From IMG/VR virus record IMGVR_UViG_2675903278_000002: a stretch of DNA of 64,000 nucleotides; one strand, given 5' to 3'. This DNA comes from a virus (lineage: Duplodnaviria > Heunggongvirae > Uroviricota > Caudoviricetes). The stretch's first letter is position 1; each line of letters opens with the position of its first letter. Made by a program: the position numbers and the translations under genes. The notes beneath the pieces were generated by a model, which saw only the letters and a list, made by a program, of their open reading frames with translations, was not told the DNA's origin and did not search any database. This document shows positions 1,776 through 49,048 of the stretch, piece by piece.

Positions 1776-1788
1776 AAGGAATGTACCG

Positions 1789-2999: not shown

Positions 3000-3001
3000 T
3001 C

Positions 3002-4075: not shown

Positions 4076-4080
4076 ACACA

Positions 4081-4106: not shown

Positions 4107-4167
4107 CTCTTGAAAATATATAAGTACTTACTTATTATTTTCGCATAACAACCACATAGGAAAACAC

Positions 4168-4368: not shown

Positions 4369-4371
4369 GTA

Positions 4372-8358: not shown

Positions 8359-8403
8359 TCCAAATGTCTCTTGTTATTCGACGGCTTTGGTGGCCTTTGC
8401 TGA

Positions 8404-8528
8404 TTACAGTGGATAGTAGCACTCATCACAGCGGTTATCCTACCGTCTATAGTGGTTTTTCTCCTCTCTATAGTGGTTGCTTTGCTCCCTATAGTGGATT
8501 ATTCGCTCTCTATAGTGGATATCGATCA
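8404..8528. repeat. six direct ~21-bp iterons immediately upstream of repA (origin/incC-like)
   Basis: TC(T/C)CTATAGTGG(A/T)T units at ~8404, 8425, 8445, 8466, 8487, 8508. Confidence 0.8.
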
Positions 8529-8559
8529 TGTCTGAAGGCAGATGGCACAACGGTTTGAG

Positions 8560-8690
8560 GTGGGCGGGGATCTTATTGGGTCTTTATGGGTCTCTTTGGT
8601 TCTCTTTGTGATCTGAATTACTGGATCGGGCCTGTGGATAAAAATCAGAGGATTTCAAGAACAGGTAACTCTACTCTTCTGTGGATATTT
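8560..8690. promoter_or_regulatory. origin-proximal region with perfect DnaA box and GATC sites
   Basis: TGTGGATAA at 8633-8641 (reverse complement of TTATCCACA); second near-box at ~8679; GATC at 8569, 8610, 8624; TCTCTTT repeats. Confidence 0.6.
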
Positions 8691-8800
8691 AAGGACATAA
8701 GAATCATGACTAAGAGTAGAGTTTAAAATATATCTATGTATATCAGTATGTTAATGAAGAATTAAGTCATTAAGTTATCCATAAAAGACAATGTGCTCTA

Positions 8801-8908
8801 CTCTCTACAGTGGATATATACAGCTCTCCAGAGTGGTTGTTTTACTCTTCATAGCGGTTATTCAGCTCTCTACAGAGGTTTCTTTGCTCTCCATAGTGGA
8901 TGGCAACA
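8801..8908. repeat. second array of five direct ~21-bp iterons
   Basis: units at ~8801, 8824, 8846, 8867, 8888, preceded by an AT-rich stretch (8690-8790). Confidence 0.7.
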
Positions 8909-8944
8909 CCCTTTCAGACCAGTAACCGCAACGGCTAGAGGCGA

Positions 8945-9005
8945 TCGGGGATCTCTTTGGATCTTCTATTTGATCTTACTTGGGATCTCTTATTTGGATC
9001 TATCC
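8945..9005. promoter_or_regulatory. cluster of five GGATCT/TGATCT heptamers (Dam sites) at ~11-14 bp spacing plus DnaA-box-like site
   Basis: GGATCTC, GGATCTT, TGATCTT, GGATCTC, GGATCTA within ~55 bp; TTATCCACT-like box on opposite strand at ~8993. Confidence 0.6.
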
Positions 9006-9101
9006 AGTGGATAACTGGGATAAGTAAAACAGGCAAATGCAGATTAAGGTATGCCTAATGAGTTATCGTAGCATCGGCCAATAACTACTGAAAAAACGAT
9101 T

Positions 9102-9746
9102 ATGGATCTAAAACGCACGCGCTGGGTTCGTCGTCTTGAGGACGGCTCCTACACTATCGAATCAAATTCCAACCTGAATAAGCAGAAGTTACTTTGTGAT
9201 ATCTGCGGTATAGCGGCGAAGTGCCCGATCTACGAAACCAGAATTAAACTTGATAAGGCTGGTGTGAACTTTCATTTGAATAGTTGTATCAGGTACGTTC
9301 CATTGCTCGCATTTCGTAAACCGATCATCGGATTGGATGCGCCCTACTTCAACACACTCCGTTCAGGAGTAACGTGGCGAGATCGTTTATCACCAGACAA
9401 ACTGATTTGCCTTGTATCCGCAGATACAGGAAAAATCATTCGTTTTGGGAAAGTAGACAAGGTTTACTCAGGCCCAGTTGACGAGATGTTGCGGAAACAC
9501 AGCCGGTTTAATCACCTCTGCATGGGTGGTGAGAAAATCGAGAAGGTTGAAGAAGTGATCCGCAAATCCTACGGACACTTCCTGACCAAAGATAGCCTGC
9601 TCACTGCAATCTACATCAGACATGTAAAACGTGAGTTCGACCTTGAATACCATAGCGAAGAAGAACTGAACCTTGTCGATCCACGTCCTAAAGCTGGCGT
9701 CATAAGCATAAATGCAGCGCGTAAAAAGCCCACTGACGCGCTGTAA
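9102..9746 (+). CDS. hypothetical protein (Cys-containing, next to origin)
   Basis: 214-aa ORF; followed by hairpin at ~9769-9792. Confidence 0.5.
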   Translation: MDLKRTRWVRRLEDGSYTIESNSNLNKQKLLCDICGIAAKCPIYETRIKLDKAGVNFHLNSCIRYVPLLAFRKPIIGLDAPYFNTLRSGVTWRDRLSPDKLICLVSADTGKIIRFGKVDKVYSGPVDEMLRKHSRFNHLCMGGEKIEKVEEVIRKSYGHFLTKDSLLTAIYIRHVKREFDLEYHSEEELNLVDPRPKAGVISINAARKKPTDAL

Positions 9747-10000
9747 CCCTCCAGATCGTATATTGGCGTAGATAGAATCTACGCCCCCTCAAAATAGCTC
9801 TCATAGCGTTCTACAGTGATCCAGTCTTATTTTTAGTCATACAGACAAGCAAAGTTGCGCCACGATAAATAGGTATATACTTACTTATAAATTTTGTATA
9901 TTAAGGCGCTCGTTTCATTCCTAACATACCGTTATGCATAGTTGTTTACCTCCTCATTGCTCTTAGAATTTGTATCAAAATAACCACAAAGGAAAAACAC

Positions 10001-11086
10001 ATGACTTTGCCATACGGCGTCATTTCTGACTGCCACTACCACAAATGGGATGCGTTCTCCACGACGAACGCTGAGGGGCTTAACTCCAGACTTGAAATAC
10101 AGTTGGAAGCAACGAAAGAAGCAGCCATCGCCATGAAGAAGGCCGGTTGTAAGTACATGTTGGTTGCCGGTGATACATTTCACGTCCGAGGAACTGTGTC
10201 CCCTTCTGTTTTGCATTACGTAACTGAAACGTACAAGTGGATTATCAACGAGCTTGATCTGACAGTAGTAATGCTGGCCGGTAATCACGATCTTGAAACC
10301 AACGATTCAGTATATAGCGCCAACGCAGCAGCATCGCTGAGTTCTATCGGCGTGGTAATCGTATGTGGCAAGCGCCCACACTCAATAAAAATTGGTGATG
10401 TGACTGTCCACCTGATTAGCTGGCGTAACAATCATGCGGAGCTTATCAGCGATCTGAAAGCATTACGTAAGAGCGTAGAAGGTGATAATCATGACGTTGT
10501 TATCCATACATCCATTAACAAAGCCATTCCAACAATGCCTGACGTCGGTATCGATGCGCAGGAGTTAAAGGATATCGGCTTTCGTCTCGTGCTTAGTGGG
10601 CATTACCACAACCACAAAGAGGTCATTCCTGGAGTTATCAGTGTCGGTGCACTGACTCATCAAAATTGGGGAGATGTTGGATCTCTGGCTGGCTACATGA
10701 TCGTAAACCCGGACGGCAGTTTCAGTCACTACGAAACCAGTGCGCCTAAATTCATTAACCTGGAAGATGATGTTGCTGATGACCAAATTCGCGGCAACTA
10801 CGTGCGTTTCCGCGCCGTAATTGAGAACGATGAAGAAGGCATTAAGTACCAGAACATCCTCAAAACAATGGGTGCAAAAGGTGTCGTGTGCAACTTCATC
10901 CGTAAGTCATCAATGATGGAAGGTACAGCCAGCACAACTGAAACCAGCAAAATCGATAGCCTGGGAGAGTCGGTATCTGCTTATTGCAAGATTGTCCACG
11001 ATACTGACGGCGGATTTGATCTGAGCAAATTGGATATTTTGTGTCAGGAAATCCTCACCGAAGCGGAGAGTTCGGAGGCTGTGTGA
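10001..11086 (+). CDS. SbcD/Mre11-family nuclease (T4 gp47-like)
   Basis: calcineurin-like phosphoesterase motifs (DCHYH, GDTFH, GNHD, GHYHNH); conserved leader upstream. Confidence 0.85.
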   Translation: MTLPYGVISDCHYHKWDAFSTTNAEGLNSRLEIQLEATKEAAIAMKKAGCKYMLVAGDTFHVRGTVSPSVLHYVTETYKWIINELDLTVVMLAGNHDLETNDSVYSANAAASLSSIGVVIVCGKRPHSIKIGDVTVHLISWRNNHAELISDLKALRKSVEGDNHDVVIHTSINKAIPTMPDVGIDAQELKDIGFRLVLSGHYHNHKEVIPGVISVGALTHQNWGDVGSLAGYMIVNPDGSFSHYETSAPKFINLEDDVADDQIRGNYVRFRAVIENDEEGIKYQNILKTMGAKGVVCNFIRKSSMMEGTASTTETSKIDSLGESVSAYCKIVHDTDGGFDLSKLDILCQEILTEAESSEAV

Positions 11087-28886: not shown

Positions 28887-29501
28887 ATGTTCGGGATGTC
28901 AATTACTCAATCAGATGGAAGTTTGTGGATGAGTCCAGAATTTACTCCGCAAAATCTGATTAATAAAGGGACAATGTCTACATCTAAAGGTTCTGTTTTT
29001 CAAACATCAATCCCATCAAACAAATCATGCTTTTTCTTCATAAAAAGCAGTAATAAGGCGAACATGATGTTTATTCATGAGCATAGTAACGGATACAATG
29101 CTCTCAGATTGCATCAGGTAAATGGTAGCCCCGGAACAATAACAGTTTATGCTTTTTCTGATATGGTGTTACCACATTCTGGCTATGGCATTGCCATGTA
29201 TAACAGCGCAGGCGCAATGGTGTATCACGGTGAGATGATGCCCCTTGATGCGAAACTTATCACTATTTCTGACCCTCAATTTACAATAGATATGGGGTAT
29301 CCATGTGCGGTAATGCCTGCTATGGTTGGGGTATATAACTATAGACGAACCGATTACGACAGACCTGTCTATGTAACAATGACAGGTGCAACTGGAAACC
29401 AAGTATATAACGGTCAATGGTATTCCGGTAATGTCACATGGGATATTAAGAAGATTTATACAAACAAAATTCTGGTGATAAATACCTCCAAGTATGATTA
29501 G
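28887..29501 (+). CDS. hypothetical protein (low-GC insert)
   Basis: 204 aa from in-frame ATG 2 nt after upstream stop; Tyr/Asn/Gly-rich. Confidence 0.45.
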   Translation: MFGMSITQSDGSLWMSPEFTPQNLINKGTMSTSKGSVFQTSIPSNKSCFFFIKSSNKANMMFIHEHSNGYNALRLHQVNGSPGTITVYAFSDMVLPHSGYGIAMYNSAGAMVYHGEMMPLDAKLITISDPQFTIDMGYPCAVMPAMVGVYNYRRTDYDRPVYVTMTGATGNQVYNGQWYSGNVTWDIKKIYTNKILVINTSKYD

Positions 29502-29604
29502 CCAATGCCTTTATTTGAAGGATTGCCTGTTTATTTCTATTTAGTACCTTTTCATTTTTGAAATAATTGCACCATTAAACAAATCACTTCTTAATGGTGC
29601 AATT

Positions 29605-31290
29605 ATGAATACAGCCCTTTCCATCATCGACGATGCCAACTCAAACACTGCTATCGACTATCGGCAGGAAATGAACGTCATCCACGAAATTGTGGCCGAG
29701 TGCGAGAAAGAGATCGCCTTCATGTATCAGGTACACGACTTCGTTTATGGCGACGAACGCCACAACATGATTAATCGCCTGCTGAGACTAAACCATCGAC
29801 CAGATGAAGATCGCTCGCGTTTAAATCGAGGTTGGTTGGATAAAGTCGATCTGGAATGGGTGAAACAGAATATTTGGGCCGAGTACTGGAGGAAGGTCAC
29901 GGACATGACTAACGTTTTGCTGATCATGCCAGCTTCCCGTCGAGATGAGTGGCGCGAGCAGTTTATAGAGGGCAAACAGGAAGTCATCAAAACTGACAGA
30001 ACCGGCTACCAGATGAAGGTTAAAGAGTTCGTTGGTGTACCGGAGTTCAAAGCAGAAACGGTCATACCCACGATGCTTAATTTGCTGAATGACAGGCACA
30101 AATATCTCTCTGAGCGCGTGTATGGCTTGTTTAAGGCGCTGAGTCCTGCGCACAAGACAAATAAGACAAACGGTTTCAGCGAACGTCTGATAATCGCTGA
30201 CTGCATTTCTGATTTCTGGCGGGACAGCGTTAGTGTGAACTATCGCAAAGAGGACTATATCGACGATCTGCGTGTCTTGCTTCATTTCTTCGCGCACAAA
30301 GAATTTATTACCATCAACCGCACTGCTGAGGTGCTATCAGCTGCGTATCGGGCAAACGACTGCCAGACCGGTGACTGGATGAACGTCGATGGAAATCTAA
30401 TGCGCGTGAAGATGTTCAAGAACGGCAACGTTCACTTTGAAATACATCCTGACGTGGCCTGGAAGTTGAATGAGGTGCTGGCTTACAGTATGCCTGCTGC
30501 AATCCCCGCGCCATGTCGCACCGCGCCAAAAACACGGGCACCAAAGCAGTTCGGGTTAATCCAGAAGACGATCTCCGTGCCGGTTCGCACTGCGCTTCGT
30601 GACGGGCGATTAAGCAAAGACAAAGGCGTATGGTACTTCTCTGATTCAGCTCTCCAGAAGTCGCAGGTGGAAGAGCTTGAGCGCACACTGAGCTTCATTG
30701 GCGGCGTGCAGGAGAAAAAGCACTGGCAGTTCCCGTATGAGATCGGCCATACGCTAAATACGATTGTGGCTACCGGATTAATACCGGATACAAAATCACA
30801 CCAGTTCTACCCTACCCCACGCTTGATTGCTGAGTACGTTGCCAGAGCCACTGAATTGAAGTCTGGTGAGAAGCTGCTGGAGCCTCAAGCCGGACGTGGG
30901 GATCTTCTGGCCTATATCAACGCCGATCTGGAAGATGTTACCTGCATAGAAATCGCACCTCTCTTCGCTGATATCCTGCGCGGAAAAGGGTATACGAACA
31001 CGATTTGCTGCGACTTCATAAAGTGGTCTGAGGACAACGTAGGTTATCAGTTCGACAAAATCGTTATGAACCCGCCGTACTCGCTTGGTCGTCATAGAGA
31101 GCACACGCTGGCTGCGCTGGGGCATCTGAAAGTCGGCGGGCGTCTTGTAGCAGTATTGCCGGGCACTGCGCCAATACTGGACTGGATGACGATGGATAAT
31201 TACGTTTATGCCAGAGGGAAGTCGTTTACCAACGAGTTTGAAGACACAGGGATCACAGTCAGCGTATACGTTTTCAAACGCGTTAAATGA
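29605..31290 (+). CDS. DNA methyltransferase with long N-terminal domain of unknown function
   Basis: C-terminal ~170 aa carry SAM motif I LLEPQAGRGDL and catalytic NPPYS; N-terminal ~390 aa without recognisable motifs. Confidence 0.6.
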   Translation: MNTALSIIDDANSNTAIDYRQEMNVIHEIVAECEKEIAFMYQVHDFVYGDERHNMINRLLRLNHRPDEDRSRLNRGWLDKVDLEWVKQNIWAEYWRKVTDMTNVLLIMPASRRDEWREQFIEGKQEVIKTDRTGYQMKVKEFVGVPEFKAETVIPTMLNLLNDRHKYLSERVYGLFKALSPAHKTNKTNGFSERLIIADCISDFWRDSVSVNYRKEDYIDDLRVLLHFFAHKEFITINRTAEVLSAAYRANDCQTGDWMNVDGNLMRVKMFKNGNVHFEIHPDVAWKLNEVLAYSMPAAIPAPCRTAPKTRAPKQFGLIQKTISVPVRTALRDGRLSKDKGVWYFSDSALQKSQVEELERTLSFIGGVQEKKHWQFPYEIGHTLNTIVATGLIPDTKSHQFYPTPRLIAEYVARATELKSGEKLLEPQAGRGDLLAYINADLEDVTCIEIAPLFADILRGKGYTNTICCDFIKWSEDNVGYQFDKIVMNPPYSLGRHREHTLAALGHLKVGGRLVAVLPGTAPILDWMTMDNYVYARGKSFTNEFEDTGITVSVYVFKRVK

Positions 31291-31351
31291 TAGGTAAATA
31301 CTTACCTAATTTGTGTAAGAATGTAGTTACTAAACGATAAGAGAAAAACAC

Positions 31352-32056
31352 ATGAACAACCTCCAGTTAGAGCATTTTAACGTCACAGGCCATTCTGATT
31401 TTCCTTTCAAGTTTACATTGAAAGGTTATGCAGAGGATGCGGTAGGCCAGATCATTATTGATAAAGGCATCGTTAAGTTTGAGGGGGATTTTGATGAATC
31501 CGCGAAAACATTCATAGACTTCGTTGCCAAACGTTGGAGCGAGCAATGGAAAAACCTGGAAAAGCGCGCCAATGAGTTTGATCGGTTCATGGATGCAATG
31601 GATACAGCAAAAGAGGCTCTTGATGCCGGGACTCCGTTAGATCTGGAGTCACTTTTCAACGGCGAAGTGGCCTCTGCGATGTTCGCCACCATGTTCGCGG
31701 GTGAGTTCGTCCGCAGCGGTGCCAAAAACTACCTTGAGCTGGATTACAACGTCCCTGCAATTGGCGATTTCGTCGTTACCATCCAACGCAAAGAAGGTAA
31801 GACGCCAGGTGAACGCGTCGCAGAACTTGAGGCTGTTGTGGATCAGCGTAACGGAGAGTGTGACCGTTTGATCAACGAGCTTCATGCACTTCGGGAAGAA
31901 AGAATATGCGCGGGTAGCAATACACGTAATGCAGCGGATATCTACTTCCAGTTAGTTGAGGAATGCCAGATTCCACCAGGCGGCTCTCTTGTCGATTACG
32001 TCAGACATTTAATGACGGAAGTTAACTCCAGCCATAAAGATGGTGAGGTGCGCTGA
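31352..32056 (+). CDS. hypothetical protein
   Basis: 234-aa ORF; leader AGAGAAAAACACATG. Confidence 0.5.
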   Translation: MNNLQLEHFNVTGHSDFPFKFTLKGYAEDAVGQIIIDKGIVKFEGDFDESAKTFIDFVAKRWSEQWKNLEKRANEFDRFMDAMDTAKEALDAGTPLDLESLFNGEVASAMFATMFAGEFVRSGAKNYLELDYNVPAIGDFVVTIQRKEGKTPGERVAELEAVVDQRNGECDRLINELHALREERICAGSNTRNAADIYFQLVEECQIPPGGSLVDYVRHLMTEVNSSHKDGEVR

Positions 32057-32436
32057 TGTTTGGCATTGACGCACAGCGTATAGCCGCTTTTGCAAAAAGC
32101 CCTCTTGATAATCCCTTGTCTCGTAGTGAGCAAATGGAGCTGGCAAGGCTTTTTCTTCACATTCAAAAACAGGCAGACGTTTTCAATAACATGCCTGATC
32201 AACCTATTCTGGATGGTCACATCCAGATGGTCATTAACAGTCATGAGAAAGGCTGGGCTGCAATCGTCCCCTGCACAATTACATACAAGTTGGCGAAAGA
32301 GGTTCAAGAGTTTCGAAAAGTCAGCGTCGAATCAGAGTCTACCAAAGCCGCAATAAACACTCTTATTCGCATGGGGTTCACATGGGACGGTGGAGCTTAC
32401 TGGCAAGCGCCTCAACCCATTTTATACGGCAATTAG
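32056..32436 (+). CDS. hypothetical protein
   Basis: 126-aa ORF, start overlaps upstream stop. Confidence 0.45.
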   Translation: MFGIDAQRIAAFAKSPLDNPLSRSEQMELARLFLHIQKQADVFNNMPDQPILDGHIQMVINSHEKGWAAIVPCTITYKLAKEVQEFRKVSVESESTKAAINTLIRMGFTWDGGAYWQAPQPILYGN

Positions 32437-32574
32437 GCGCTACAAATCCTTCTGCATGAATAAATAAAGGCCATAACTTATGGCCTTAAATAAATTGTTT
32501 TCTACATTTTCTTATTTGTGAAAATAAACCAGCACTTGGTAGTGCTTATGTAACAGCAAAGAAGAGAAAAACAC

Positions 32575-33030
32575 ATGAGTAACAAAATCGAAAATCCCGT
32601 AGTTCTCATTCACAAGCGCGAGAACCACGACTCCTATGCGGTGGCGATCACCAATGGGAGTCACGATTTTTACGATGGCCTGCTAATGGCCTCAGTGTCG
32701 CCTGATGAGGCAGACAACTCTTTTGCCGTCTTCGCTATGGTTGGTTACTACATGGCTGCTGAAATTGAGAAGTTGCGGGCGCAGAGAGACGCATTAGCGG
32801 CGGAGAATGCAGCCCTGAAAGAATCTGAGCGAGCATTCGATGCGATGTGTGCCGAGGAACACGGAGATAATTGGGTTAGCGAATTAACGGAGACTCCAGC
32901 CACCGATGCTTTTCTGGCTGAAGTACGTGCGCAGGGCGTGGAGATGTTTGCTGAGTGCGCATACACACTTGAACATCATGATCACGCAGTAGCTTTTGCC
33001 GCTGAGCTTCGTACAGGAAATAAACAGTGA
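32575..33030 (+). CDS. hypothetical protein
   Basis: 151-aa ORF; leader AGAGAAAAACACATG. Confidence 0.5.
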   Translation: MSNKIENPVVLIHKRENHDSYAVAITNGSHDFYDGLLMASVSPDEADNSFAVFAMVGYYMAAEIEKLRAQRDALAAENAALKESERAFDAMCAEEHGDNWVSELTETPATDAFLAEVRAQGVEMFAECAYTLEHHDHAVAFAAELRTGNKQ

Positions 33031-33593
33031 ATGAGATTTACTACCTGACGTTACGTGAACGTTATTCACCAAAACCAGCGCCTAAATGCTCTGTTTGTGG
33101 CGAGGAAATGTCAATACAGCGCATATCTGGAGCACATGTTGTTTATGCCTGTTCCGGTGAGAGTGATGACGGATATTTTAAGATAGGGCGTACTTTTGCA
33201 GATGAACATTATGAAAAATCACGCGTAACAGTAGTTGATGATAGTGATCCCGATGTGATTGCACTGCTGGACGAACTGGATAAAAGACAGCAACACATCC
33301 GACGTCTTGAGCAGGAGAACGTAGAGATGGCCCTAACGCTTGAGAAACTGCGTGTTGAGCTGGAGACCGTTAAACAGCGGGAAAAGGATCTGTTTATGGA
33401 AAATGTTCGACTTAAGTCAGGTATAGCAGGTCTGATACACCTCGGTATTCGATATGCGAATGTCGAAGTCATGAAAATAGCTGGAGATGCCCAGCTTTCT
33501 ACTCCCTGTACTGACAGCATCATAAACAGTATTGCATCAGGCGTTTTCACCAAAGAGGGTCAGCATTATGAGAACAGTAGAAGTTCGCGCTGA
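33027..33593 (+). CDS. hypothetical protein (CxxC-containing, coiled-coil)
   Basis: 188 aa, CSVCGEE motif. Confidence 0.45.
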   Translation: MNEIYYLTLRERYSPKPAPKCSVCGEEMSIQRISGAHVVYACSGESDDGYFKIGRTFADEHYEKSRVTVVDDSDPDVIALLDELDKRQQHIRRLEQENVEMALTLEKLRVELETVKQREKDLFMENVRLKSGIAGLIHLGIRYANVEVMKIAGDAQLSTPCTDSIINSIASGVFTKEGQHYENSRSSR

Positions 33594-33753
33594 AGATGTA
33601 ACCCCAGGTGATGTGGTCATAACATCTAAAGGCAAACGATGTGCGGTTAAATCTTTCTGGATGGAAGGTGACAAAGTGACTCTGTTCGGTACGGATGGTT
33701 CCGAAACGGATTATGACTACGACGAATTGCTTGTTGTTGAGAGAGCTGCCTAA
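33568..33753 (+). CDS. hypothetical small protein
   Basis: 61 aa from ATG 33568 (ORF track start 33532). Confidence 0.35.
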   Translation: MRTVEVRAEDVTPGDVVITSKGKRCAVKSFWMEGDKVTLFGTDGSETDYDYDELLVVERAA

Positions 33754-34511
33754 TGACCACCTTAACCAAAGAACAGTTAATCTCCCATGCACGCGAAAGC
33801 GTTAGTTATCTGGAAGACTTGAAAGGACGTGTTAGTAAAGAAGGTGCGGACTGCAAAGTTGTTATTGAGATGGTTGCACGAGATCTAAAACTGGCACGAA
33901 TTGCACTGGCCTCGCTTGAGGCAAAACCAATAGGTGCATTCCACATTGCAGAACAGCAAGTTGACGGCACAAGTGACTACCTCAAGGATGGAGAATGGCC
34001 TATTGATAATGGGACAATTGAAGTATACGCCGCCCCTCCAGTGCCAGTAGTACCGGAAGAAAAACCAATGCCTAACGCTCTAAGCATGCTTGAAAGAGAG
34101 ATCACACAACTGATTGGTGATGCGCAGGAAGCCACTGTTACTGGCTATGAGTTAATCGCTGAAGCTTGGCGTTTGATGGATGGACAAGACCCTAAAACCA
34201 GCGATTGGCATAGCAAGGCTTCGAAGTATTTAAATTCCAATATTGTAGAAAAAGTTGATGATGACCGTATTGAGGCTGTTAAGGCCGTTTTGCGTAGACT
34301 GGCTGGCAACCATCCGGATTTTCCGGATAGTTCCCAACAATCGCCCAAGAAAAGCGTAAAAACCACTCTGGAAAGAGGCTATCTTGAGGCCGCATTAAAG
34401 ATTAAGCCGGGCCATACGCTAGGCGTCATTGATGCCATGTTGGTTCATGAAATGGCGAAGGCTTTATTGCCGCTGGTGGCTGATAAAATTCCGAATAAGG
34501 CCGATATCTGA
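33753..34511 (+). CDS. hypothetical protein
   Basis: 252-aa ORF. Confidence 0.5.
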   Translation: MTTLTKEQLISHARESVSYLEDLKGRVSKEGADCKVVIEMVARDLKLARIALASLEAKPIGAFHIAEQQVDGTSDYLKDGEWPIDNGTIEVYAAPPVPVVPEEKPMPNALSMLEREITQLIGDAQEATVTGYELIAEAWRLMDGQDPKTSDWHSKASKYLNSNIVEKVDDDRIEAVKAVLRRLAGNHPDFPDSSQQSPKKSVKTTLERGYLEAALKIKPGHTLGVIDAMLVHEMAKALLPLVADKIPNKADI

Positions 34512-34556
34512 TCACCATGCTAAAATCCCCTCAATTCACAGAGGGGATTTTTGTAT

Positions 34557-34823
34557 ATGTTGCATAGAGTTTTATGGAAAAGCGTTATTGTCGGCGCGAT
34601 ACTGGCTATATCTGGGTGTGCAATGGTGCAATACAACGACGGTGAAAAGGTAAGCATACAGTCAGATGGTTGGTATGGCCTGGATAGCCTGCAAAAAACC
34701 GCAGATAAAGCCTGTCAGCAATATGGGAAGTCTAAAGCAGTATATCAGCATAGCGCGAACGCTAACCCTAATCTTGCGCCCGGTTCGGGTGTTCAGAATA
34801 CCATCTGGAAATGTGAGCCTTAA
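34557..34823 (+). CDS. small lipoprotein
   Basis: signal peptide with lipobox AISGC; 88 aa. Confidence 0.45.
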
Positions 34824-34825
34824 AT

Positions 34826-35077
34826 ATGAGCGACTGGAATATTGCAGCTAAAAGTCAGGAAGAACGGGATAAGGTTAACGTTGATCTGGCTGCCAGCGGT
34901 GTGGCGTACAAAGAGCGATTGAACATACCTGTCATAGCTGAACAGGTAGCCCGCGAGCAACCAGAGAACCTGCGCACCTATTTCATGGAACGGTTACGGC
35001 ACTACCGGCAGTTAAGCCTCCAGTTGCCAAAAGGAAGCCATCCGGTGTATCAGAACGAGGATGCACCAAGAAAATAA
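34826..35077 (+). CDS. hypothetical protein
   Basis: 83-aa ORF. Confidence 0.4.
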
Positions 35078-35453
35078 CGGCAAGATGGGGAAGACATTAA
35101 ACATGCTTAACTATCACGACAACACGCGTTCTATGCAGACAATCCGCACCAATACAGCGGTGGTCGATAGCTTTCCTGTACATACTCAAGGCCGTGAAGA
35201 TACCGTGGAAGTGCGACGCATGTTGTGTCGCCGGTCACCAGGCCACCAGCACTTCATCGTAACGTTTAAAAGCGATGTAGAGCGCGCCGAGAAAATCTCT
35301 AACTCCACATCTCTGGTTAGTCCGTTGGCGGAGGTTATTGTGCGCAACAATAAGGCGCGCTTTGTCCTTGAGGAGCATCATTCTGATTTTAATGAAAAAA
35401 TTGAGTCAAGCATTTTGCAATATATGAATGGCAAGTTCACGCCACCAATGTGA
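35061..35453 (+). CDS. hypothetical protein
   Basis: 130-aa ORF; start uncertain. Confidence 0.4.
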
Positions 35454-35514
35454 TTAGCCCCCAGCGTGGCGCGCCTGCAAACCCCGCTTTCACAAACTAT
35501 GCCTTTTCAATGTA

Positions 35515-35979: not shown

Positions 35980-37080
35980 TCACACTGCGCGGAATGCGAT
36001 TTCGCCAGGTATTACTTCACCTTGCCAATACATTTGGGCAGCAACGCGATCTGCGAGGTCACGATAAATAGCCGTAAATTCGCTATCTGGACGACTAATA
36101 ACGGTTGGTGTTCCGTTATCCAGATCTTCACGAAGAGAGATATGAAGTGGCATTTGGCCTAACAACTGCGTGTTGTATTTCTCGGCCAGTTTCTGTGCGC
36201 CACCGGTGCCAAAAATTGGCTCGTGATGACCGCAGTTACTGCAAATATGCACACTCATGTTTTCGACGATACCCAGTACCGGCACTTCGACTTTTTCGAA
36301 CATCACAATGCCTTTCTTCGCATCGATCAGCGCGATGTCTTGCGGCGTAGTTACCACAACCGCACCAGTTACAGGAATGTTCTGCGCCAGCGTCAACTGA
36401 ATATCACCAGTGCCCGGCGGCATATCGAGAACGAGATAGTCCAGATCAGGCCATAGAGTTTCCTGCAACATCTGCATCAGCGCCTTGCTGGCCATCGGTC
36501 CACGCCACACCATTGCATTGTCGTCGGTGACCAGATAACCAATAGAGTTGGTTGCCAGGCCATGAGACATGATAGGTGCCATGTGAGTACCGTCCGGTGA
36601 GGTTGGACGTTGGTTTTCCGCGCCCAGCATGGTTGGAATTGATGGACCATAGATATCGGCATCCAAAATACCAACTTTCGCACCTTCAGCAGCCAACGCC
36701 AGTGCCAGATTTACCGCCGTGGAGGATTTACCTACGCCGCCCTTGCCTGAGCTGACGGCGATAATGTTCTTAACGCCATTAATGCCTGGTTGGTTTTTGA
36801 CGCGCTTAAGCGTGGCAATGTTGTACGACAGCTTCCAGTCAATAGCCTTTGCGCCAGTGATACGGAGCAGATCACCACTACATTGCTCTTTCAGGTCTTC
36901 AAAAGGCTTATTCCACACGAAAGGCATGATTAGTTCGACATGCAGTGTGTCATCCATCAACGCAACATGGTGTAACGCTTTAAGCGTAGTCAGGTTGTGT
37001 TTCAGGGTTGGGTGCTGAAAATTAGCCAGCGTACCGGCTACCATTGCTCTCAGGGCATCCGGCGATTTGGACTCGCTCAT
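35980..37080 (-). CDS. apbC: Fe-S cluster carrier ATPase ApbC/Mrp
   Basis: 366 aa; near-identical to enterobacterial Mrp as recalled (SGKGGVGKS P-loop, CSNCGH motif); divergent from metG as in E. coli. Confidence 0.9.
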   Translation of the reverse strand: MSESKSPDALRAMVAGTLANFQHPTLKHNLTTLKALHHVALMDDTLHVELIMPFVWNKPFEDLKEQCSGDLLRITGAKAIDWKLSYNIATLKRVKNQPGINGVKNIIAVSSGKGGVGKSSTAVNLALALAAEGAKVGILDADIYGPSIPTMLGAENQRPTSPDGTHMAPIMSHGLATNSIGYLVTDDNAMVWRGPMASKALMQMLQETLWPDLDYLVLDMPPGTGDIQLTLAQNIPVTGAVVVTTPQDIALIDAKKGIVMFEKVEVPVLGIVENMSVHICSNCGHHEPIFGTGGAQKLAEKYNTQLLGQMPLHISLREDLDNGTPTVISRPDSEFTAIYRDLADRVAAQMYWQGEVIPGEIAFRAV

Positions 37081-37236
37081 CCCGTCTCCTTTATTTTAAT
37101 TTGCGCAATTGTCGCCTTGTAGTGTACTCCAGCTACGACATTTAATCATTTATGAGAAATGCTGTTATCACATGGCAGACATAAGGCCATTTTGTTACTA
37201 TCAAGCCCCTTTTCACTACAAAGAAGTAATGCCTAC

Positions 37237-39271
37237 TATGACCCAAGTCGCGAAGAAAATTCTGGTGACGTGCGCGCTGCCGTACGCTAACGGCTCAATC
37301 CACCTCGGCCATATGCTGGAGCACATCCAGGCTGATGTCTGGGTTCGTTACCAGCGAATGCGCGGCCACGAGGTTAATTTCATCTGTGCCGACGATGCCC
37401 ACGGTACGCCGATCATGCTGAAAGCACAGCAGCTTGGTATCACACCGGAGCAGATGATTGGCGAAATGAGTCAGGAACACCAGACTGATTTCGCAGGCTT
37501 TAACATCAGCTATGACAACTATCACTCGACGCACAGCGAAGAGAACCGTCAGTTGTCTGAGCTTATCTATACTCGCCTGAAAGAGAACGGTTTTATTAAA
37601 AACCGCACTATCTCTCAGTTGTACGACCCGGAAAAAGGCATGTTCCTGCCGGATCGTTTTGTAAAAGGCACCTGCCCGAAATGTAAAGCGCCAGATCAAT
37701 ACGGCGATAACTGTGAAGTCTGCGGCGCAACATATAGCCCGACTGAATTGATCGAGCCGAAATCGGTGGTTTCTGGCGCTACCCCGGTAATGCGTGATTC
37801 CGAACACTTCTTCTTTGATCTGCCTTCTTTCAGCGAAATGTTGCAGGCATGGACCCGCAGCGGCGCGTTGCAGGAGCAGGTGGCGAACAAAATGCAGGAA
37901 TGGTTTGAATCCGGCCTGCAACAGTGGGATATCTCCCGAGATGCGCCTTACTTCGGTTTTGAAATTCCGAACGCGCCGGGCAAATATTTCTACGTCTGGC
38001 TGGACGCGCCGATTGGCTACATGGGTTCCTTCAAGAATCTGTGCGACAAGCGCGGCGATACCACCAGCTTCGATGAATACTGGAAGAAAGACTCCACCGC
38101 CGAGCTGTACCACTTCATCGGTAAAGATATTGTTTACTTCCACAGCCTGTTCTGGCCTGCCATGCTGGAAGGCAGCAACTTCCGCAAGCCGACCAACCTG
38201 TTTGTTCACGGCTATGTGACGGTGAACGGCGCGAAGATGTCCAAGTCTCGCGGCACCTTTATTAAAGCCAGCACCTGGCTGAATCATTTTGACGCCGACA
38301 GCCTGCGTTACTACTACACTGCGAAACTCTCTTCGCGCATTGATGATATCGATCTCAACCTGGAGGATTTCGTTCAGCGCGTGAATGCCGATATCGTGAA
38401 CAAAGTGGTTAACCTGGCCTCCCGTAATGCAGGCTTTATCAACAAGCGTTTTGACGGCGTGCTGGCAAGCGAACTGGCTGACCCGCAACTGTACAAAACC
38501 TTTACTGATGCCGCTGAAGTGATTGGCGAAGCATGGGAAAGCCGCGAATTTGGTAAAGCTATCCGTGAAATCATGGCATTGGCTGACCTGGCTAACCGCT
38601 ATGTCGATGAACAGGCTCCGTGGGTGGTGGCGAAGCAGGAAGGACGCGATGCCGATCTGCAGGCGATTTGCTCTATGGGCATTAACCTGTTCCGCGTGCT
38701 GATGACGTACCTGAAGCCGGTACTGCCGAAACTGACTGAACGTGCAGAAGCATTCCTGAATACAGAACTGACCTGGGATGGTATCCAGCAACCGCTGCTG
38801 GGCCATAAAGTAAATCCGTTCAAGGCACTGTATAACCGCATCGATATGAAGCAGGTTGAAGCACTGGTGGAAGCATCCAAAGAAGAAGTGAAAGCCACAG
38901 CCGCACCGGTAACTGGCCCACTGGCTGACGACCCGATTCAGGAAACTATCACCTTTGACGACTTCGCCAAAGTTGACCTGCGCGTGGCGCTGATTGAAAA
39001 CGCAGAGTTTGTAGAAGGTTCTGACAAACTGCTTCGCCTGACGCTGGATCTCGGTGGTGAAAAGCGTAATGTCTTCTCAGGCATCCGTTCCGCTTATCCA
39101 GATCCACAGGCACTGATTGGTCGTCACACCATTATGGTGGCTAACCTGGCACCACGTAAAATGCGCTTCGGTATCTCTGAAGGCATGGTGATGGCTGCTG
39201 GCCCCGGCGGGAAAGATATCTTCCTGTTAAGCCCGGATGCTGGTGCTAAACCTGGCCACCAGGTTAAGTAA
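37237..39271 (+). CDS. metG: methionyl-tRNA synthetase
   Basis: 677 aa from [10 protein letters not shown]; HIGH-type [12 protein letters not shown] and KMSKS motifs; near-identical to E. coli MetG as recalled; large antisense ORF 37295..38806 rejected. Confidence 0.95.
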
Positions 39272-40106: not shown

Positions 40107-40676
40107 ATGGATGTGATGGAAACCCAGAACCAACAAACAAAACCTCTGAATAACATTTATGCGTGGATTCTAGCGTTCATGCCTTTCTTCTTTGGAGTAT
40201 CGCCGGAAGAGTATACCAATTACGCTATTATAATTGGGGGTGTAACTACCATCGGTTTGTTAGTAGCTGACAGAATGGCTCTATCGGAGTCTGGCTGTGA
40301 ACCACCTTCAATTCTATGGGGGGTATTCCTCCTGCCTGTCTATCTCTGGAAGCGCGCGACTATTACAAAAGGCAGCAGAGTGCCATTTATCATAATCGTT
40401 GCGTCGCTGGCTTGGATTATCTTCATCGGCATCCCACACAAGGACGAGGTTGCTCTTGAAGAAGCAGCCTGCCCTCTCGTGACAACTATTCTGAAAGAGA
40501 ATAACGGTTCGACTGCACCAAAATGTATGAAGGTGACAATAGAGGACAAGGTGACGGATAAGTTCTATAGAGCAACGGCTACACTAGACAATGGTAATGA
40601 CATTAACATTACTCTGGAACTTACCGGCGACAGGAACTTCTACGTCCGTGTTCCAAATGTTTATCTGAACAACTAA
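40107..40676 (+). CDS. hypothetical integral membrane protein (about 4 TM)
   Basis: 189 aa, four hydrophobic helices. Confidence 0.5.
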   Translation: MDVMETQNQQTKPLNNIYAWILAFMPFFFGVSPEEYTNYAIIIGGVTTIGLLVADRMALSESGCEPPSILWGVFLLPVYLWKRATITKGSRVPFIIIVASLAWIIFIGIPHKDEVALEEAACPLVTTILKENNGSTAPKCMKVTIEDKVTDKFYRATATLDNGNDINITLELTGDRNFYVRVPNVYLNN

Positions 40677-40795
40677 CGGTTGCAACTTATTGATAATGGC
40701 GGTCACAATTTGATTCTTTTCTATAAGAACCCGTTGATCGCCACTACTCCCCTCCCATACCAGCAATCACATCATTAAATATCAATAGGTTATGG

Positions 40796-41560
40796 TTGTT
40801 TATACAAATAAGAAAACAACTAAATAACAGATCAACGAAACGTCAACGCTTTCACCCGATTTGGTCTAAAAAATTGACGTTTTCACACATCACTTCTTAT
40901 ACCCGTAACTCTACGCAGCAGACATCGCCACAGCGTCCAATTTTCACCACAGACGACCCAACACACTACCAACAAAAACACACGCTCAAAATCGCTCCCG
41001 TTGCGTTACACAACCATATAAACAACTTATTTTCAGGCATAACAAAACAACTAAATAACACACATGCCATTTCCAAAAACAACCAACCTCTTTATGGCAG
41101 GCTACCGAAAAGACCCACCTCTTCTCCCCAGGCTACCGGACAACCAACCTAACTTTCACAGGCAATCCGAAAACATTCATACGCGCGATACCCACGACAC
41201 GCCATTACCCAAACAGCGAAGAAACACCAGAATCACTGAACCCCCAACGAAGCCTGTAACCGCAAGGCTTCTCTCAATCCCAAAAGACACGAAACAGAAC
41301 AATCACGGGAAACGCCATTACCCAACACACGAATAACTACAAAAGCCCTTCACGCACTCCAGACAAACAACTCAAACACAATAACGAAAGGAATCGCCCA
41401 CCTGCCATTACTCCATACACGGAGAAGAACAATCACCAAAACGACGAGAACACCCCATAGAAGAACCACCGCAAAACGAACGAAACCACATACACCGACA
41501 GAGAGAACAACACACCCAATTCACCAACAGAATTAGTCGCCGTATAGAACGTTCTGGAAG
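40796..41560. other. ~750-bp strongly strand-asymmetric C/A-rich, G-poor non-coding tract
   Basis: top strand dominated by A and C with few G; only low-complexity ORFs; internal ~30-bp repeats CAGGC(T/A)ACCG... at ~41097, 41130, 41159. Confidence 0.6.
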
Positions 41561-41747
41561 GAGTGAGTGTTAACGTCCATAGAGAGGTTGAGACAGATAA
41601 AACACGAATAAAACACAACATGTATAGCGAAGAAGCCAGGTATGTATAAGTGGGGAGAGAAGGAGGGGTGTCGCCTCCTTTTTCGTATTTATTCAACTCC
41701 TGATTTTACCCCCCGTAACACCCCTACGGTCAGCCTTCGGTCCATAC

Positions 41748-41890
41748 AGGGAAAAGGCTGCATCCCGCTACAGAAACGGCTGGGTTGCCTTCGGGGAACG
41801 GCTGGAGGTTTTCAGGGAAACGGTCGAGTTGCCTGTGTGGATTTCGGGAAAAGGCTCGATGCCGGTTCAGGAACGGTGGCGTACCGGTAT
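41748..41890. repeat. six direct repeats GG(G)AAA(A)CGGCT at ~21-22 bp periodicity
   Basis: units at ~41750, 41772, 41794, 41815, 41846, 41869; related array at 45775-45890. Confidence 0.65.
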
Positions 41891-42259
41891 AGCGTGAGGG
41901 AGAGTTGCGGCTGTCCACCTGTAATGTGCGGGAAGAAGAGAGGCGCTCACGTGCAGGCGAACTTACTTACCGCTGGATTCCCTCTGAATGCCCAGCTACA
42001 GCGTAATTGTGCCAGACAGTCAGCGGGTCACAATCGATTTCAGTAGGTTTTCGGGGAGAAGAAAATTCTGCCCACCAGCCCTGCGGCGCGCGTAGAGCAG
42101 AATATCGTAAATACTGGTTCCGTGTCGTTCCCGGATACTCACTACCCAGCCTGGCTTTCCCGACATAAAATCCTTTTCCGCCTTTGTCTTATTGCGATAA
42201 TAACACCAACAAGTAAACAACATGTTTAGACGTTATATAAACGAAGTGAGGATGAAGAG

Positions 42260-42478
42260 ATGATTAAGATGCCTGTGACGGTTGAGGTGTGGGGCGTGGA
42301 TTCCCTGGCTGAGTGTCTGGATGCAGTGGGGCCGGAGTTGTACCGCAAGTTGTGGTCGTTCGTCCCGGCAGAAGGGGAATCGCCCAAAGGGAAGGATATC
42401 TGGCACCTGCTGAGTGAAGATGAAAAGCGGGAGCTGGTGGACGCGGTACACAGCGAGTTCCCGGGCGACGAAGATTAA
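42260..42478 (+). CDS. hypothetical small acidic protein (cassette)
   Basis: 72 aa; motif A at 42211-42228; terminator hairpin GGCCACCAGCACGGTGGC after stop. Confidence 0.5.
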   Translation: MIKMPVTVEVWGVDSLAECLDAVGPELYRKLWSFVPAEGESPKGKDIWHLLSEDEKRELVDAVHSEFPGDED

Positions 42479-42616
42479 GAGTGAGGCCACCAGCACGGTG
42501 GCTTTTGTCGCTATTAACCTCCGGGCAGCGCAGCACCGTAACGATATACTTTGTGGCCGTTTTCTTACTGGTATTGTTTACGCAATTCAGAAAACAACAT
42601 GTTTAAGGATTGCGTT

Positions 42617-42946
42617 ATGTTTGCAAATATCGACATCAACCAAATCAAGAAAATGACTCAAAAAGAGTTTGACCAGTTTTATGAGTTAGAAGGTTGGTCT
42701 TCCACTCTGATCAATTCGCGGTGGGTGCTTGAGCTGATGACTCGTGATGACGCACCTGCTTTGATGATTTGCGACATGGGTGAAGATGCTGACTTTATGG
42801 ATATGAGCGAATTTTGTGTGGACACATACAACCGCAGCCAGAAGTACTACTTCACATGCGATAGCGAAAATGACGTGATTTCTAAGGTCTATCTTCACCT
42901 CGTCCAGCATTGGGACGTTCAGGAGTTTCTTGAAGTATTCGAGTAA
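42617..42946 (+). CDS. hypothetical protein (cassette)
   Basis: 109 aa from ATG 42617; motif A at 42588-42606; hairpin after stop. Confidence 0.5.
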   Translation: MFANIDINQIKKMTQKEFDQFYELEGWSSTLINSRWVLELMTRDDAPALMICDMGEDADFMDMSEFCVDTYNRSQKYYFTCDSENDVISKVYLHLVQHWDVQEFLEVFE

Positions 42947-44571: not shown

Positions 44572-44760
44572 TTATTAAGGCCACCAGCATTGGTGGTCTT
44601 AAATGACTTTTAATAACCGAAGGTTAGTTTGAAACCTGGCTATCAACTTCCAGAACCTTTCTTGTGTATTCAGCCTGTATTAACTTCTTTTATGCCTTAT
44701 CTACACTGCGATAATTACACCAACAAGAAAACAACATGTTTACGCAGTGAGGATATGCTC

Positions 44761-45042: not shown

Positions 45043-45079
45043 AGATTAAGGCCACCAATGCTGGTGGCCTTAAATGACC

Positions 45080-45180
45080 ATCCTGTTTCCCGCAGGCTAA
45101 AAACACCAACCTCTTACCTCCAGGCAACCGACAAACCCACCTGTTCCCGTCCGGCTACCGCAACTTTCCACTTTGACGCC
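45080..45180. repeat. C/A-rich tract with three ~30-bp CAGGC(T/A)A(C/A)CG repeats (short copy of the 40796-41560 tract)
   Basis: units at ~45093, 45121, 45152 resembling those at 41097-41170. Confidence 0.55.
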
Positions 45181-45774: not shown

Positions 45775-45890
45775 GCCGCAGGGAAATTTTCAGAAACGGC
45801 GAGGAACGTATTCATAAGCCGACGGGAAACGGCCAGGATTTTTTCGGGAAACGGCTGCATTCGCCTTTATGTAGAAAAAAACATCGGGAA
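45775..45890. repeat. second array of GGGAAACGGC-type direct repeats
   Basis: units at ~45778, 45791, 45822, 45845, 45884, same family as 41748-41890. Confidence 0.6.
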
Positions 45891-46346
45891 GCTGGTGGAA
45901 TCCAACCAGCGGTTGTCGGACAGGCGAGCGGGGAAAATTATGATGACTTTCGTCGCCTGAGACATCCAGATTTCTTTCGTAGCATAATCACATACGTGAT
46001 TAAGTGGTGTGATTATGTGAAAAATCACGCGCACATAATACGCGAGCGGATACGGAACAAAACAAAATGCCGATCCGCGCCGACAAATAAACGCGGATCA
46101 CATAGCAAGAATAAAAGCCAATGATTAGCCATACGTTATAGCGCAATATAACGCATTTTAAGCGCGTTAATGTGCTAAGTAATGGGTATGTACTGGTAAG
46201 GATATAAAAGCGCGTCTATGGCGTTATTTTGGCGCTTATTTTTATGTTGTTGGAGTGAGTTAAAGACAATAAAAAACGCGCCATCATTGGCGCGCTATGG
46301 TGGGAGTATTGGAAACGAAAAAAGCGCCCATAGTGGGCGCTCGATT

Positions 46347-48096: not shown

Positions 48097-48621
48097 TCAA
48101 AAAGGCAAAATTCGTTCAACCCAATCGAACAAAACAACTATTTTTCTACCGTTCTCGACACGTAGTGTAACCTGACAAGCATCTGCGCCTGCTGACACCC
48201 CCTCAATTTCACGGCCATCCGCCATGTACACCCTTATAGATTTGTTTGCTTTGTAGGCTTGGTTGCAAATTGCAAAAAAATCGCGGCGTGATGGCCGATT
48301 ATCGACATAATCAGGGTGAACTGTTAGTCGACCTTTGAAATCGTGAGCGATACTGTCAACCACACCTGATTCAATTGTACTAATGCGTTCAAGTGGGAGC
48401 CTTATACGATTTTCTTTGTCAAAAGGGGCTGGGCAAAGGTCAACTTTGTTACGAGATGGCATGAGGCCATAAACGTACATGCAAAACGCCTGGCCATCTT
48501 CGAGAGTGACCCTTACAGGAATTTGTTCTCTGCGCCAGAACATCAGTAGTTTTTCAACGTTAGTGTAATCTCGCGGCCAGAGTTCAGCTTGGATACCGTA
48601 GGTAATATCTTTGGTTGTCAT
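48097..48621 (-). CDS. hypothetical protein
   Basis: 174 aa from internal Met chosen to avoid overlap with upstream lipoprotein gene; start uncertain. Confidence 0.4.
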   Translation of the reverse strand: MTTKDITYGIQAELWPRDYTNVEKLLMFWRREQIPVRVTLEDGQAFCMYVYGLMPSRNKVDLCPAPFDKENRIRLPLERISTIESGVVDSIAHDFKGRLTVHPDYVDNRPSRRDFFAICNQAYKANKSIRVYMADGREIEGVSAGADACQVTLRVENGRKIVVLFDWVERILPF

Positions 48622-48625
48622 ATCA

Positions 48626-49048
48626 TCACAGAGTTGTTGGCAGAATGTCGATGTCACCAGAATTGCTGGTAAACACCCTGAACGCTTTTGTGTCTCCATT
48701 CTTCAGAGTCGTTTCTCGCTCTTGACGAGCGGGGTTTAGAGCACATAAACCTGCACCTTCAAGAGATGCACCCACAATTAATTCTCCGGCATTTAAATGG
48801 AAAGTCGCTTTTTCGCCTGTAGCCAGTTTTGCGACAGTTTCGCCGTTGATGAAAATGGAAGCATCACATCCAGCTCCTACAAAACCTGTGTCTCTCATTA
48901 CCACCAACGTAGCTGGCGCTGCGCTTTGATACTTGAACACTTTGGCCTGCGGTGCTGGTTTGGCGTCATGGATTGATATTGGGTGTGATTGGCACGCGGC
49001 AAGCATCAACACTGGTAACGTTAGTAGAGGGAGAAGCGAGTATTTCAT
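48626..49048 (-). CDS. hypothetical lipoprotein
   Basis: signal peptide with lipobox (LMLAAC) from Met at 49048; 140 aa. Confidence 0.5.
   Translation of the reverse strand: MKYSLLPLLTLPVLMLAACQSHPISIHDAKPAPQAKVFKYQSAAPATLVVMRDTGFVGAGCDASIFINGETVAKLATGEKATFHLNAGELIVGASLEGAGLCALNPARQERETTLKNGDTKAFRVFTSNSGDIDILPTTL

Follow-up and report, generated by a model that had tools for sequence, protein, structure and literature searches.

A conserved, non-coding C/A-rich tract between cargo and early genes of an SSU5/pLF82-type phage-plasmid: a candidate Rho-dependent transcription barrier

Introduction

Rho utilisation (rut) regions, such as that of lambda tR1 and those of the long leaders attenuated by Rho, are C-rich, G-poor, unstructured and untranslated on the transcribed strand, and transcripts are lost across them without an intrinsic terminator. 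Here, we analyse a tract that is alike in sequence, and at which RNA signal is lost in lysogens, in a 64,000-nucleotide stretch of DNA from a virus of the Caudoviricetes (IMG/VR record IMGVR_UViG_2675903278_000002; the whole stretch is called the window, and positions refer to it unless stated otherwise). The tract lies at 40796-41560, is rich in C and A and poor in G and T, and encodes no protein; folding predictions leave its + strand RNA near-unstructured. Also as in rut regions, a downstream hairpin could cap trimmed 3′ ends. In contrast to them, the tract is about ten times longer, contains conserved motifs, and has a promoter-like element and an operator-like site of its own. The tract resembles a very long rut region and is at most a candidate member of this class.

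C/A-rich single-stranded RNAs from mobile or regulatory loci also include the CA-motif Hfq sponges CrcZ and CrcY of Pseudomonas, and AgvB, a prophage-encoded anti-small RNA that mimics GcvB. The tract is similar in character, but its ARN and AAnAAnAA motifs are not enriched, its predicted pairing with GcvB is compositional, it is silent in lysogens and it is much longer. A CsrA sponge of the CsrB/RsmZ type was considered and rejected, as GGA is not enriched, Rfam gives no match, and the GGGAAA boxes beyond the tract have no conserved hairpins. In ToxI-like type III toxin-antitoxin systems, tandem repeats of 34-36 nt are co-transcribed with a downstream gene of the ToxN family. This arrangement was rejected for the repeats described below, as a promoter-operator separates those at 45071-45164 from the following gene, and the 160-aa protein encoded there has no Pfam match.

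At the DNA level, the iteron origins (P1 oriR/incA, P4 ori/crr and lambda ori) offer a parallel in repeats phased at about 22 bp beside the tract, a second array 4 kb away and repressor-type operators nearby. They differ from the present locus in that the repeats here lie outside the tract, and in that there is no enrichment of DnaA boxes, AT-rich element, GATC or adjacent initiator gene. The operator network of the P1 C1 repressor likewise has a counterpart in a 15-bp palindrome found at about 15 places, before early and late operons and also inside the tract; the sequence is different, however, the operators are predicted, and a phrog_1444 protein is the candidate repressor.

Phage-plasmids of the SSU5 type are common in clinical Enterobacteriaceae, including pHCM2 of Salmonella Typhi, and carry resistance and defence cargo, but their regulation is essentially unstudied. 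We found no description of the tract or of its operator in the literature on SSU5, pHCM2, Cyrano and phage-plasmids. The tract is positioned exactly where variable cargo and silenced early genes meet.

Composition and coding potential

The preliminary description of this DNA, made from the letters of the sequence, reported a strand-biased tract of about 750 bp dominated by A and C and poor in G, considered it non-coding, and doubted that it could be neutral. Base counts across 40796-41560 agree with the first of these statements (A.393, C.318, G.128, T.161). The A+C content peaks at 0.72 (750-nt segment, position 40801), against a window mean of 0.498 with a standard deviation of 0.030, which corresponds to a z-score of 7.4. 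The lowest G, lowest T, highest A and highest C contents of the entire 64 kb, measured in 500-nt segments, are all located here. The ratio of C to G exceeds 1.5 in 683 consecutive 80-nt segments from 40799 (approximately 760 nt), the next-longest run on either strand being 144. CC and AA dinucleotides show a weak periodicity of 10.5-11 bp. GATC sites are absent from 40830-42709 (1.9 kb), whereas the window averages one per 227 bp, and this absence is only partly accounted for by the G/T-poor composition.

As T and G are rare in the tract, so are stop codons, and all three + frames contain long open stretches. Four open reading frames (ORFs) driven by composition cover it (40796-41152, 41064-41336, 41433-41696 on the - strand and 41642-42046), and a Pfam search with all four returned no match, in keeping with the spurious, low-complexity ORFs of the preliminary description. 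A conserved coding frame in relatives would have spoken against its view of the tract, and stop-free frames were compared in 14 of them. The open stretches differ from relative to relative. The longest, of 227 codons in pHCM2 and in plasmids of Escherichia fergusonii and Citrobacter, contains no methionine. It is broken in SSU5, in several Enterobacter plasmids and in lineages L011, L012 and L016, and Klebsiella plasmids lack a counterpart. Insertions and deletions between lineages are not multiples of three, and the period-3 power of the tract is 3.1, compared with 22.4 (metG) and 12.9 for real genes. The absence of a conserved frame, of three-nucleotide periodicity and of a Pfam match excludes a protein-coding gene; the tract is non-coding. 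Annotations of the region disagree: the NCBI Prokaryotic Genome Annotation Pipeline (PGAP) places no gene in the gap, others place ORFs on one strand or the other, and CYRAN_103, CYRAN_104 and SSU5_108 are such spurious calls filling it. A pseudogene of a neighbour was also considered and rejected, since tblastn with eight flanking proteins against 46 variants of the tract matched only the starts of genes at its edges.

Conservation and distribution

A region of 1 kb around the tract was found at 251 places in 243 of 5,426 complete Escherichia coli genomes, exclusively on plasmids and never on a chromosome. The window is 99.7% identical to, and colinear with, NZ_CP029421.1, a 101-kb plasmid, and the region further matches Escherichia phage Cyrano (pLF82), PhiR41_1, Salmonella phage SSU5 and SSU5-like phages of Klebsiella. 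Judged by these matches, the window is a phage-plasmid of E. coli of the SSU5/pLF82 type. The gene-free gap that holds the tract, at 40677-42259 (about 1.6 kb), is wider than previously described, and the element filling it occupies the same position in 839 PLSDB plasmids from Klebsiella, Escherichia, Enterobacter, Salmonella (pHCM2), Citrobacter, Cronobacter and others. These carriers are nearly all non-mobilizable, and the examples fetched are IncFIB plasmids of 105-120 kb. The distribution of the tract parallels that of the downstream gene, which is present in 746 plasmids.

When the window, SSU5 and a Klebsiella phage were compared, blocks of the tract were 0.51-0.85 identical, with 84% identity to SSU5 in the block at 41401-41560. 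In contrast, identity at third codon positions of three flanking genes ranged from 0.30 to 0.57; with the window compared to either SSU5 or the Klebsiella phage it was 0.36-0.48, against 0.55-0.84 in the tract. By this comparison, the tract changes more slowly than the synonymous sites of its neighbours and is under purifying selection. The skew itself is also kept: positions that vary in the alignment retain it (A+C.60-.73), as do insertions that are specific to other lineages and missing from the window (A+C.71-.75). In distant members, where the downstream protein is 34-56% identical, the tract is not easily alignable, but 650-900 nt with an A+C content of 0.6-0.75 are still found at the same place and with the same landmarks. 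Between the -10-like hexamer and the box that follows the hairpin, both described below, lie 749-863 nt, with a median of 797 (44 sequences). The initial doubt about neutrality is thus upheld by conservation above the synonymous level across genera and by the maintained skew.

Truncated copies of the tract also exist (L007 6001-6745, L006 6001-6468 and L088 1465-1950). Two are cut by insertion sequences (IS) in large Klebsiella cointegrate plasmids and one, on a metagenomic contig, has its distal half replaced by two genes; the distal half is therefore not always kept, at least in contexts that are non-autonomous or recombinant. An independent module of 450 bp in the large Klebsiella plasmids was considered, and rejected because these copies are fragments of the same element, cut by IS within cointegrates.

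Strand and RNA structure

The + strand RNA of 40906-41560 (655 nt) folds with a predicted free energy of -78.5 kcal/mol, or -0.12 per nt, compared with -170 kcal/mol for the - strand RNA. A consensus fold and conservation profile were derived from 23 lineages that are less than 96% identical to each other. No conserved RNA structure was found in this way in the tract or in the array of boxes beyond it, the consensus energies of -3.8 and -0.4 kcal/mol being approximately zero. A search of Rfam, with the whole window at gathering thresholds and with 40500-42400 at E ≤ 10, gave nothing meaningful.

The sole conserved structure is a hairpin at 41657-41684. Its alignment cells are paired in 217 of 230 cases when read as + strand RNA, with many G.U pairs, but in only 145 of 230 as - strand RNA. 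Since pairing is maintained on the + strand only, selection would act on a + strand transcript that reaches 41690, and this pattern indicates that the hairpin is selected at the RNA level. The stretch 41657-41690 is called an intrinsic terminator in the window, as is its counterpart in Cyrano, whereas the U-run is poor in SSU5 and Klebsiella lineages.

Genomic setting and expression in lysogens

To the left of the tract lie cargo genes, comprising a type I restriction-modification (R-M) system, apbC-metG and small hypothetical genes. To the right follows a row of small + strand genes, the first at 42260-42478, and beyond these a block on the - strand that encodes a repressor (phrog_1444) and a helicase, then ParB-like genes, and the terminase at 55 kb. 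The neighbouring genes belong to PHROGs of unknown function. The genes flanking the tract are on the + strand, and the upstream cargo, although variable, is mostly in the same orientation as the tract. The repA gene lies 26 kb away.

Expression was read from the re-analysed RNA-seq data on LF82 lysogens of Misson et al. (PMC9928086, S1 Table), which are given as log2(FPKM+5), where FPKM stands for fragments per kilobase per million and 2.32 corresponds to zero. CYRAN_102, the cargo gene immediately upstream of the tract in Cyrano, has values of 5.6-9.2 (FPKM of about 45-590), and in macrophages values of up to 7.8 are given for CYRAN_105, the first gene on the downstream side (PMC9928086). CYRAN_103, which corresponds to 40796-41152 of the window, has a value of 2.32 in both replicates in LB medium and of at most 4.27 elsewhere (PMC9928086). 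The tract thus stays silent while genes on both sides of it are expressed. Neither Cyrano nor the window has a hairpin-U terminator between the tract and the stop codon of the gene before it.

A candidate Rho-dependent barrier

Any account of the tract has to accommodate its composition, its lack of coding capacity, its conservation above the synonymous level, the absence of RNA structure within it, the + strand hairpin beyond it, and the loss of RNA signal without an intrinsic terminator. We favour, with a probability of roughly one in three, the reading that it is an untranslated, rut-like and Rho-dependent transcription barrier or attenuator, acting as an insulator at the boundary between cargo and early genes. 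The tract would form the body of a conserved + strand transcription zone of about 0.8 kb, placed at the junction between variable cargo and repressor-controlled early genes. Its RNA, untranslated, C-rich, G-poor and practically unfoldable, would be a substrate for Rho loading, and, as this is what Rho needs to load, transcription would end inside the tract. Read-through from co-oriented cargo genes expressed in lysogeny would be terminated there, and probably also the transcripts from the weak, operator-flanked promoter-like element of the tract itself. The conserved 3′ hairpin would serve as a back-stop terminator and 3′-end cap. The outcome would be an orientation-specific insulator or attenuator, which in the plasmid state shields the early genes and the box array from unregulated transcription. 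We infer the action of Rho, the activity of the promoter-like element and selection for insulation.

The sequence has the features sought in rut sites, namely a stretch of at least 80 nt with C exceeding G, structure-free RNA and a lack of translation. The position suits an insulator, since a hotspot of variable cargo that is expressed in lysogeny lies directly before the tract and early genes under operator control lie after it. If correct, the reading would account for the accumulation of cargo at this spot and for cargo expression in lysogens that leaves the phage dormant.

Anatomy of the gap element

The gap element begins sharply at 40688, upstream of which the gene varies by lineage. Alignments reveal a left boundary block on the + strand at 40688-40742, with the arrangement TTGATA/TTGACA..GGCGGTCAC..TTTCTATAAGA..CGTTGATCGCC. 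A XerCD/cer-like boundary was considered and rejected, as the resemblance, judged by eye, is weak. The best-conserved part of the element is a block of 77 nt on the + strand at 40807-40883, in which the mean conservation over 12 columns is at least 0.88 among the 23 lineages. It contains an operator half-site (ATAAGAAAACAA), repeats of TCAACG/GTCAACG, GATTTGGTCTAAAAA and a -35-like hexamer, and in L066, a distant lineage, a complete operator palindrome stands at the site equivalent to the half-site.

This hexamer, TTGACG at 40874-40879, is followed after an 18-nt spacer by TATACC at 40898-40903, and together they form a promoter-like element on the + strand (40874-40903). The hexamers and their spacing are kept across lineages while the sequence of the spacer varies, a pattern of conservation that is that of a promoter, although the element is a predicted one. 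Further into the tract, at 41019-41033, is an operator-like palindrome, TAAACAACTTATTTT, which matches the family consensus AAAACAA-N-TTGTTTT almost perfectly and is accompanied by a half-site at 41040-41051. Its position is fixed at +146/147 from the -35 hexamer in 21 of the 23 lineages.

The 15-bp consensus occurs 15 times in the window, against 0.31 expected. Palindromes are located at 5262, 16993, 27215, 27944, 32487(-), 39355(-), 39404, 42212, 42589, 43073, 44726, 54328 and 54355(-), in addition to 41019-41033. Such sites precede each small early gene and the terminase operon, directly following -35/-10-like hexamers. Because of this placement at the start of promoter-like modules, the palindrome is probably the operator of a master repressor, and the predicted sites as a set look like the genome-wide operators of an uncharacterised repressor of this kind, for which the phrog_1444 protein encoded at 48097-48696 on the - strand is a candidate.

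The internal repeats of about 30 bp noted in the preliminary description, and the shorter tract of the same kind that it placed at 45080-45180, are both recovered as one family (D2) of six members in two triplets. The first comprises three tandem copies on the + strand at 41076-41172, of the form ACCnACCTCTT..CAGGCTACCG, with an identity of 0.78 between the window and SSU5. The second, also on the + strand, occupies 45071-45164, with a terminator hairpin (45046-45073) before it and the phrog_1641 gene and its promoter-operator after it; the shorter tract has a GC skew of -0.29 to -0.39. As the second triplet stands between a terminator and a promoter, at least this motif would have a role at the DNA level, and the 30-bp repeats look like DNA sites. 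Near-identical terminator hairpins (AAGGCCACCA..TGGTGGCCTT) at 44575-44602 and 45046-45073 end consecutive small genes, and the latter directly precedes the second triplet.

Three motifs of the type GCCATTAC(C/T)C follow the first triplet in the same orientation on the + strand, at 41201, 41314 and 41404 (41201-41413). Relatives contain three to six copies, always in one orientation and with variable spacing, and only one further exact copy of GCCATTAC is found in the remaining 63 kb.

After the tract comes a purine-rich (G+A) block at 41556-41656 on the + strand, conserved in composition but poorly in sequence. The hairpin at 41657-41684, followed in the window by a U-run, and a conserved box, CGTATTTATTCAA, together occupy 41657-41696 of the + strand. 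An array of about six GGGAAAMGG boxes, iteron-like and without a conserved RNA fold, extends over 41747-41890 on the + strand, beginning 190 bp downstream of the tract, and in SSU5, pHCM2 and lineage L008 the boxes are spaced at 23/21/22/31/22-23 bp. The promoter-operator module of the first downstream small gene (42260-42478) follows at 42160-42228 on the + strand (families D4 and D6). A second box array, of the GGGAAACGG type (D14), is located downstream of the phrog_1641 gene at 45781-45940 on the + strand, in the same orientation as the first and approximately 4 kb from it. The repeats around repA (13.2-16 kb) share no motifs with the tract.

An additional coding sequence of 243 nt on the - strand (7402-7644 in L002, where it is SSU5_110, and 2914-3162 in L012, L013 and L016) is inserted into the gap, in its right part, in the lineages of SSU5, pHCM2 and several Enterobacter plasmids, and is absent from the window and the Klebsiella lineages.

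Alternative explanations

Several points weigh against the Rho-dependent barrier. The case for Rho is indirect, and the loss of RNA signal at the tract may reflect RNA decay instead of termination, the strandedness of the libraries not being stated. A usual rut site is about 80 nt in length, not 750, which makes the tract about tenfold too long, and a single intrinsic terminator would be a cheaper insulator. TATACC lacks the canonical final T of a -10 hexamer, and a consensus promoter scanner did not call TTGACG-N18-TATACC. The most conserved parts are specific motifs and the 77-nt control block, not composition alone, and the second 30-bp triplet between terminator and promoter points to a role at the DNA level. 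The model accounts neither for the extra length nor for the promoter-like element, the operator inside the tract and the motifs of specific sequence; GCCATTAC and the 30-bp repeats fall outside the Rho model and are probably bound by a further factor. Nevertheless, of the functions suggested in the preliminary description, Rho loading and polarity fits best, on the indirect evidence of C exceeding G, structure-free and untranslated RNA, co-oriented genes and the loss of RNA signal.

A doubtful alternative, although the highest we would place among the rivals, is a control region for lytic replication, in which the promoter-like element, once derepressed, would drive a non-coding transcript across the tract and on into the purine-rich block and the GGGAAAMGG boxes, and so activate or prime an origin there, on the models of transcriptional activation in lambda and of R-loop priming in ColE1 and T4, with the second array resembling P4 crr. 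At least three direct repeats phased at about 22 bp, as expected of iterons, are seen in the boxes at 41747-41890 beside the tract but not in the tract itself. Phased boxes occurring twice, 4 kb apart, suggest a nucleoprotein site such as a lytic origin; the array of about six boxes at 21-23 bp phasing has no RNA fold, and its second version lies at 45781-45940. The operator-like palindrome fixed inside the tract and the silence of the tract in lysogens agree with this reading, as do the rnhA, 5′-3′ exonuclease, dnaE and helicase genes that the window element encodes itself. The predicted hybrid-minus-duplex energy of 41568-41969 ranks among the lowest 0.5% in the window, but about 24 other places are equally low and the purine block is not unique. 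R-loop formation by the tract itself was rejected, its propensity lying only in the 10-20th percentile by nearest-neighbour energies. Against an origin also stand the background frequency of DnaA boxes and IHF sites, the restriction of AT-rich segments to 40774-40835 with none beside the boxes, the 1.9-kb stretch without GATC, the absence of an adjacent initiator gene among neighbours from PHROGs of unknown function, and a GC skew without a switch at the region. Furthermore, an origin gives no reason for the richness in C and A.

The motifs themselves would be the point of the tract if it were an array of protein-binding sites in the DNA, made up of the 30-bp repeats, GCCATTAC and the TTGAC/TCAACG cluster, on which a protein of the phage-plasmid would assemble into a nucleoprotein complex for regulation, silencing or segregation; this we consider rather improbable and place below the origin. 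The strand skew would then be a by-product of repeats in the same orientation. GCCATTAC is indeed present three to six times in one orientation and with variable spacing in every lineage, the 30-bp triplet recurs at 45071-45164 between the terminator and a -35, the 77-nt block is more conserved than a promoter would need, and CC/AA recur weakly at 10.5-11 bp. Recognisable motifs, however, make up about a quarter of the tract, and the skew is equally strong in variable columns and insertions, which repeats do not explain. The hairpin is selected at the RNA level on the + strand, and no candidate binding protein was found. Packaging, another DNA-level function suggested earlier, is unlikely because the terminase is 13.5 kb distant.

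The tract could also be a repressor-gated gene for a structure-free, C/A-rich RNA of about 0.8 kb made at the onset of lytic growth, either acting in trans or serving as an origin transcript, which we regard as unlikely. In one version, the RNA would soak up Rho or another binder of single-stranded RNA, so that phage transcription escapes termination; if Rho were the target, it would be the RNA counterpart of protein inhibitors of Rho such as P4 Psu. In the other, it would be the activating or priming transcript of the lytic origin marked by the GGGAAAMGG boxes. Such an RNA would be a new type of phage regulatory RNA. Less likely still is the wider proposal of a long non-coding RNA made early after induction and acting in trans as a decoy or sponge for a host binder of single-stranded C/A-rich RNA, be it Rho, Hfq or a GU-rich small RNA such as GcvB. 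The element is a discrete unit from promoter-like element to 3′ hairpin, is conserved in length, and is structure-free with conserved blocks such as 41401-41560, all of which would suit a sponge. The counts do not: (ARN)4 is observed 0 times against 1.0 expected, AAnAAnAA 3 against 2.1 and GGA 5 against 5.4. Predicted pairing with GcvB R1 is -17.6 kcal/mol, compared with -16.6 ± 0.6 from composition. There is no Rfam family, and the RNA is undetectable in LF82 at about 0 FPKM, in data that cover lysogens only. The Hfq sponge with ARN-like repeats of the preliminary description accordingly finds no support in its motifs, with no (ARN)4 runs and unenriched AAnAAnAA and GGA, nor in lysogen expression.

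Very improbable, and already disfavoured, is the reading of the tract as functionless, decayed DNA left over from a gene or from duplicated promoter-operator modules. Pieces of the tract do resemble the promoter-operator modules of its neighbours (families D3, D7 and D12), and the order of 30-bp repeats, hairpin and boxes occurs twice, once around a real gene. Conservation above the synonymous level across at least six genera, with the length kept and the skew maintained, argues against decay, and tblastn with neighbouring proteins found nothing within the tract. Whether barrier or source of a trans-acting RNA or origin transcript, the tract is a concrete and easily deleted target for studies of the plasmid-versus-phage decision.

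Further features of the phage-plasmid

The element carries several host-like housekeeping genes, as annotated in NZ_CP029421.1: a divergent apbC(mrp)-metG pair (35980-39271), dnaE (961-4479), rnhA (23609-24202) and a homologue of the theta subunit of Pol III (35204-35455). The matching RefSeq record also contains an ORF annotated as a LAGLIDADG homing endonuclease (8384-10723), and a type I R-M locus (28018-34845) in which the S gene is split by IS1.

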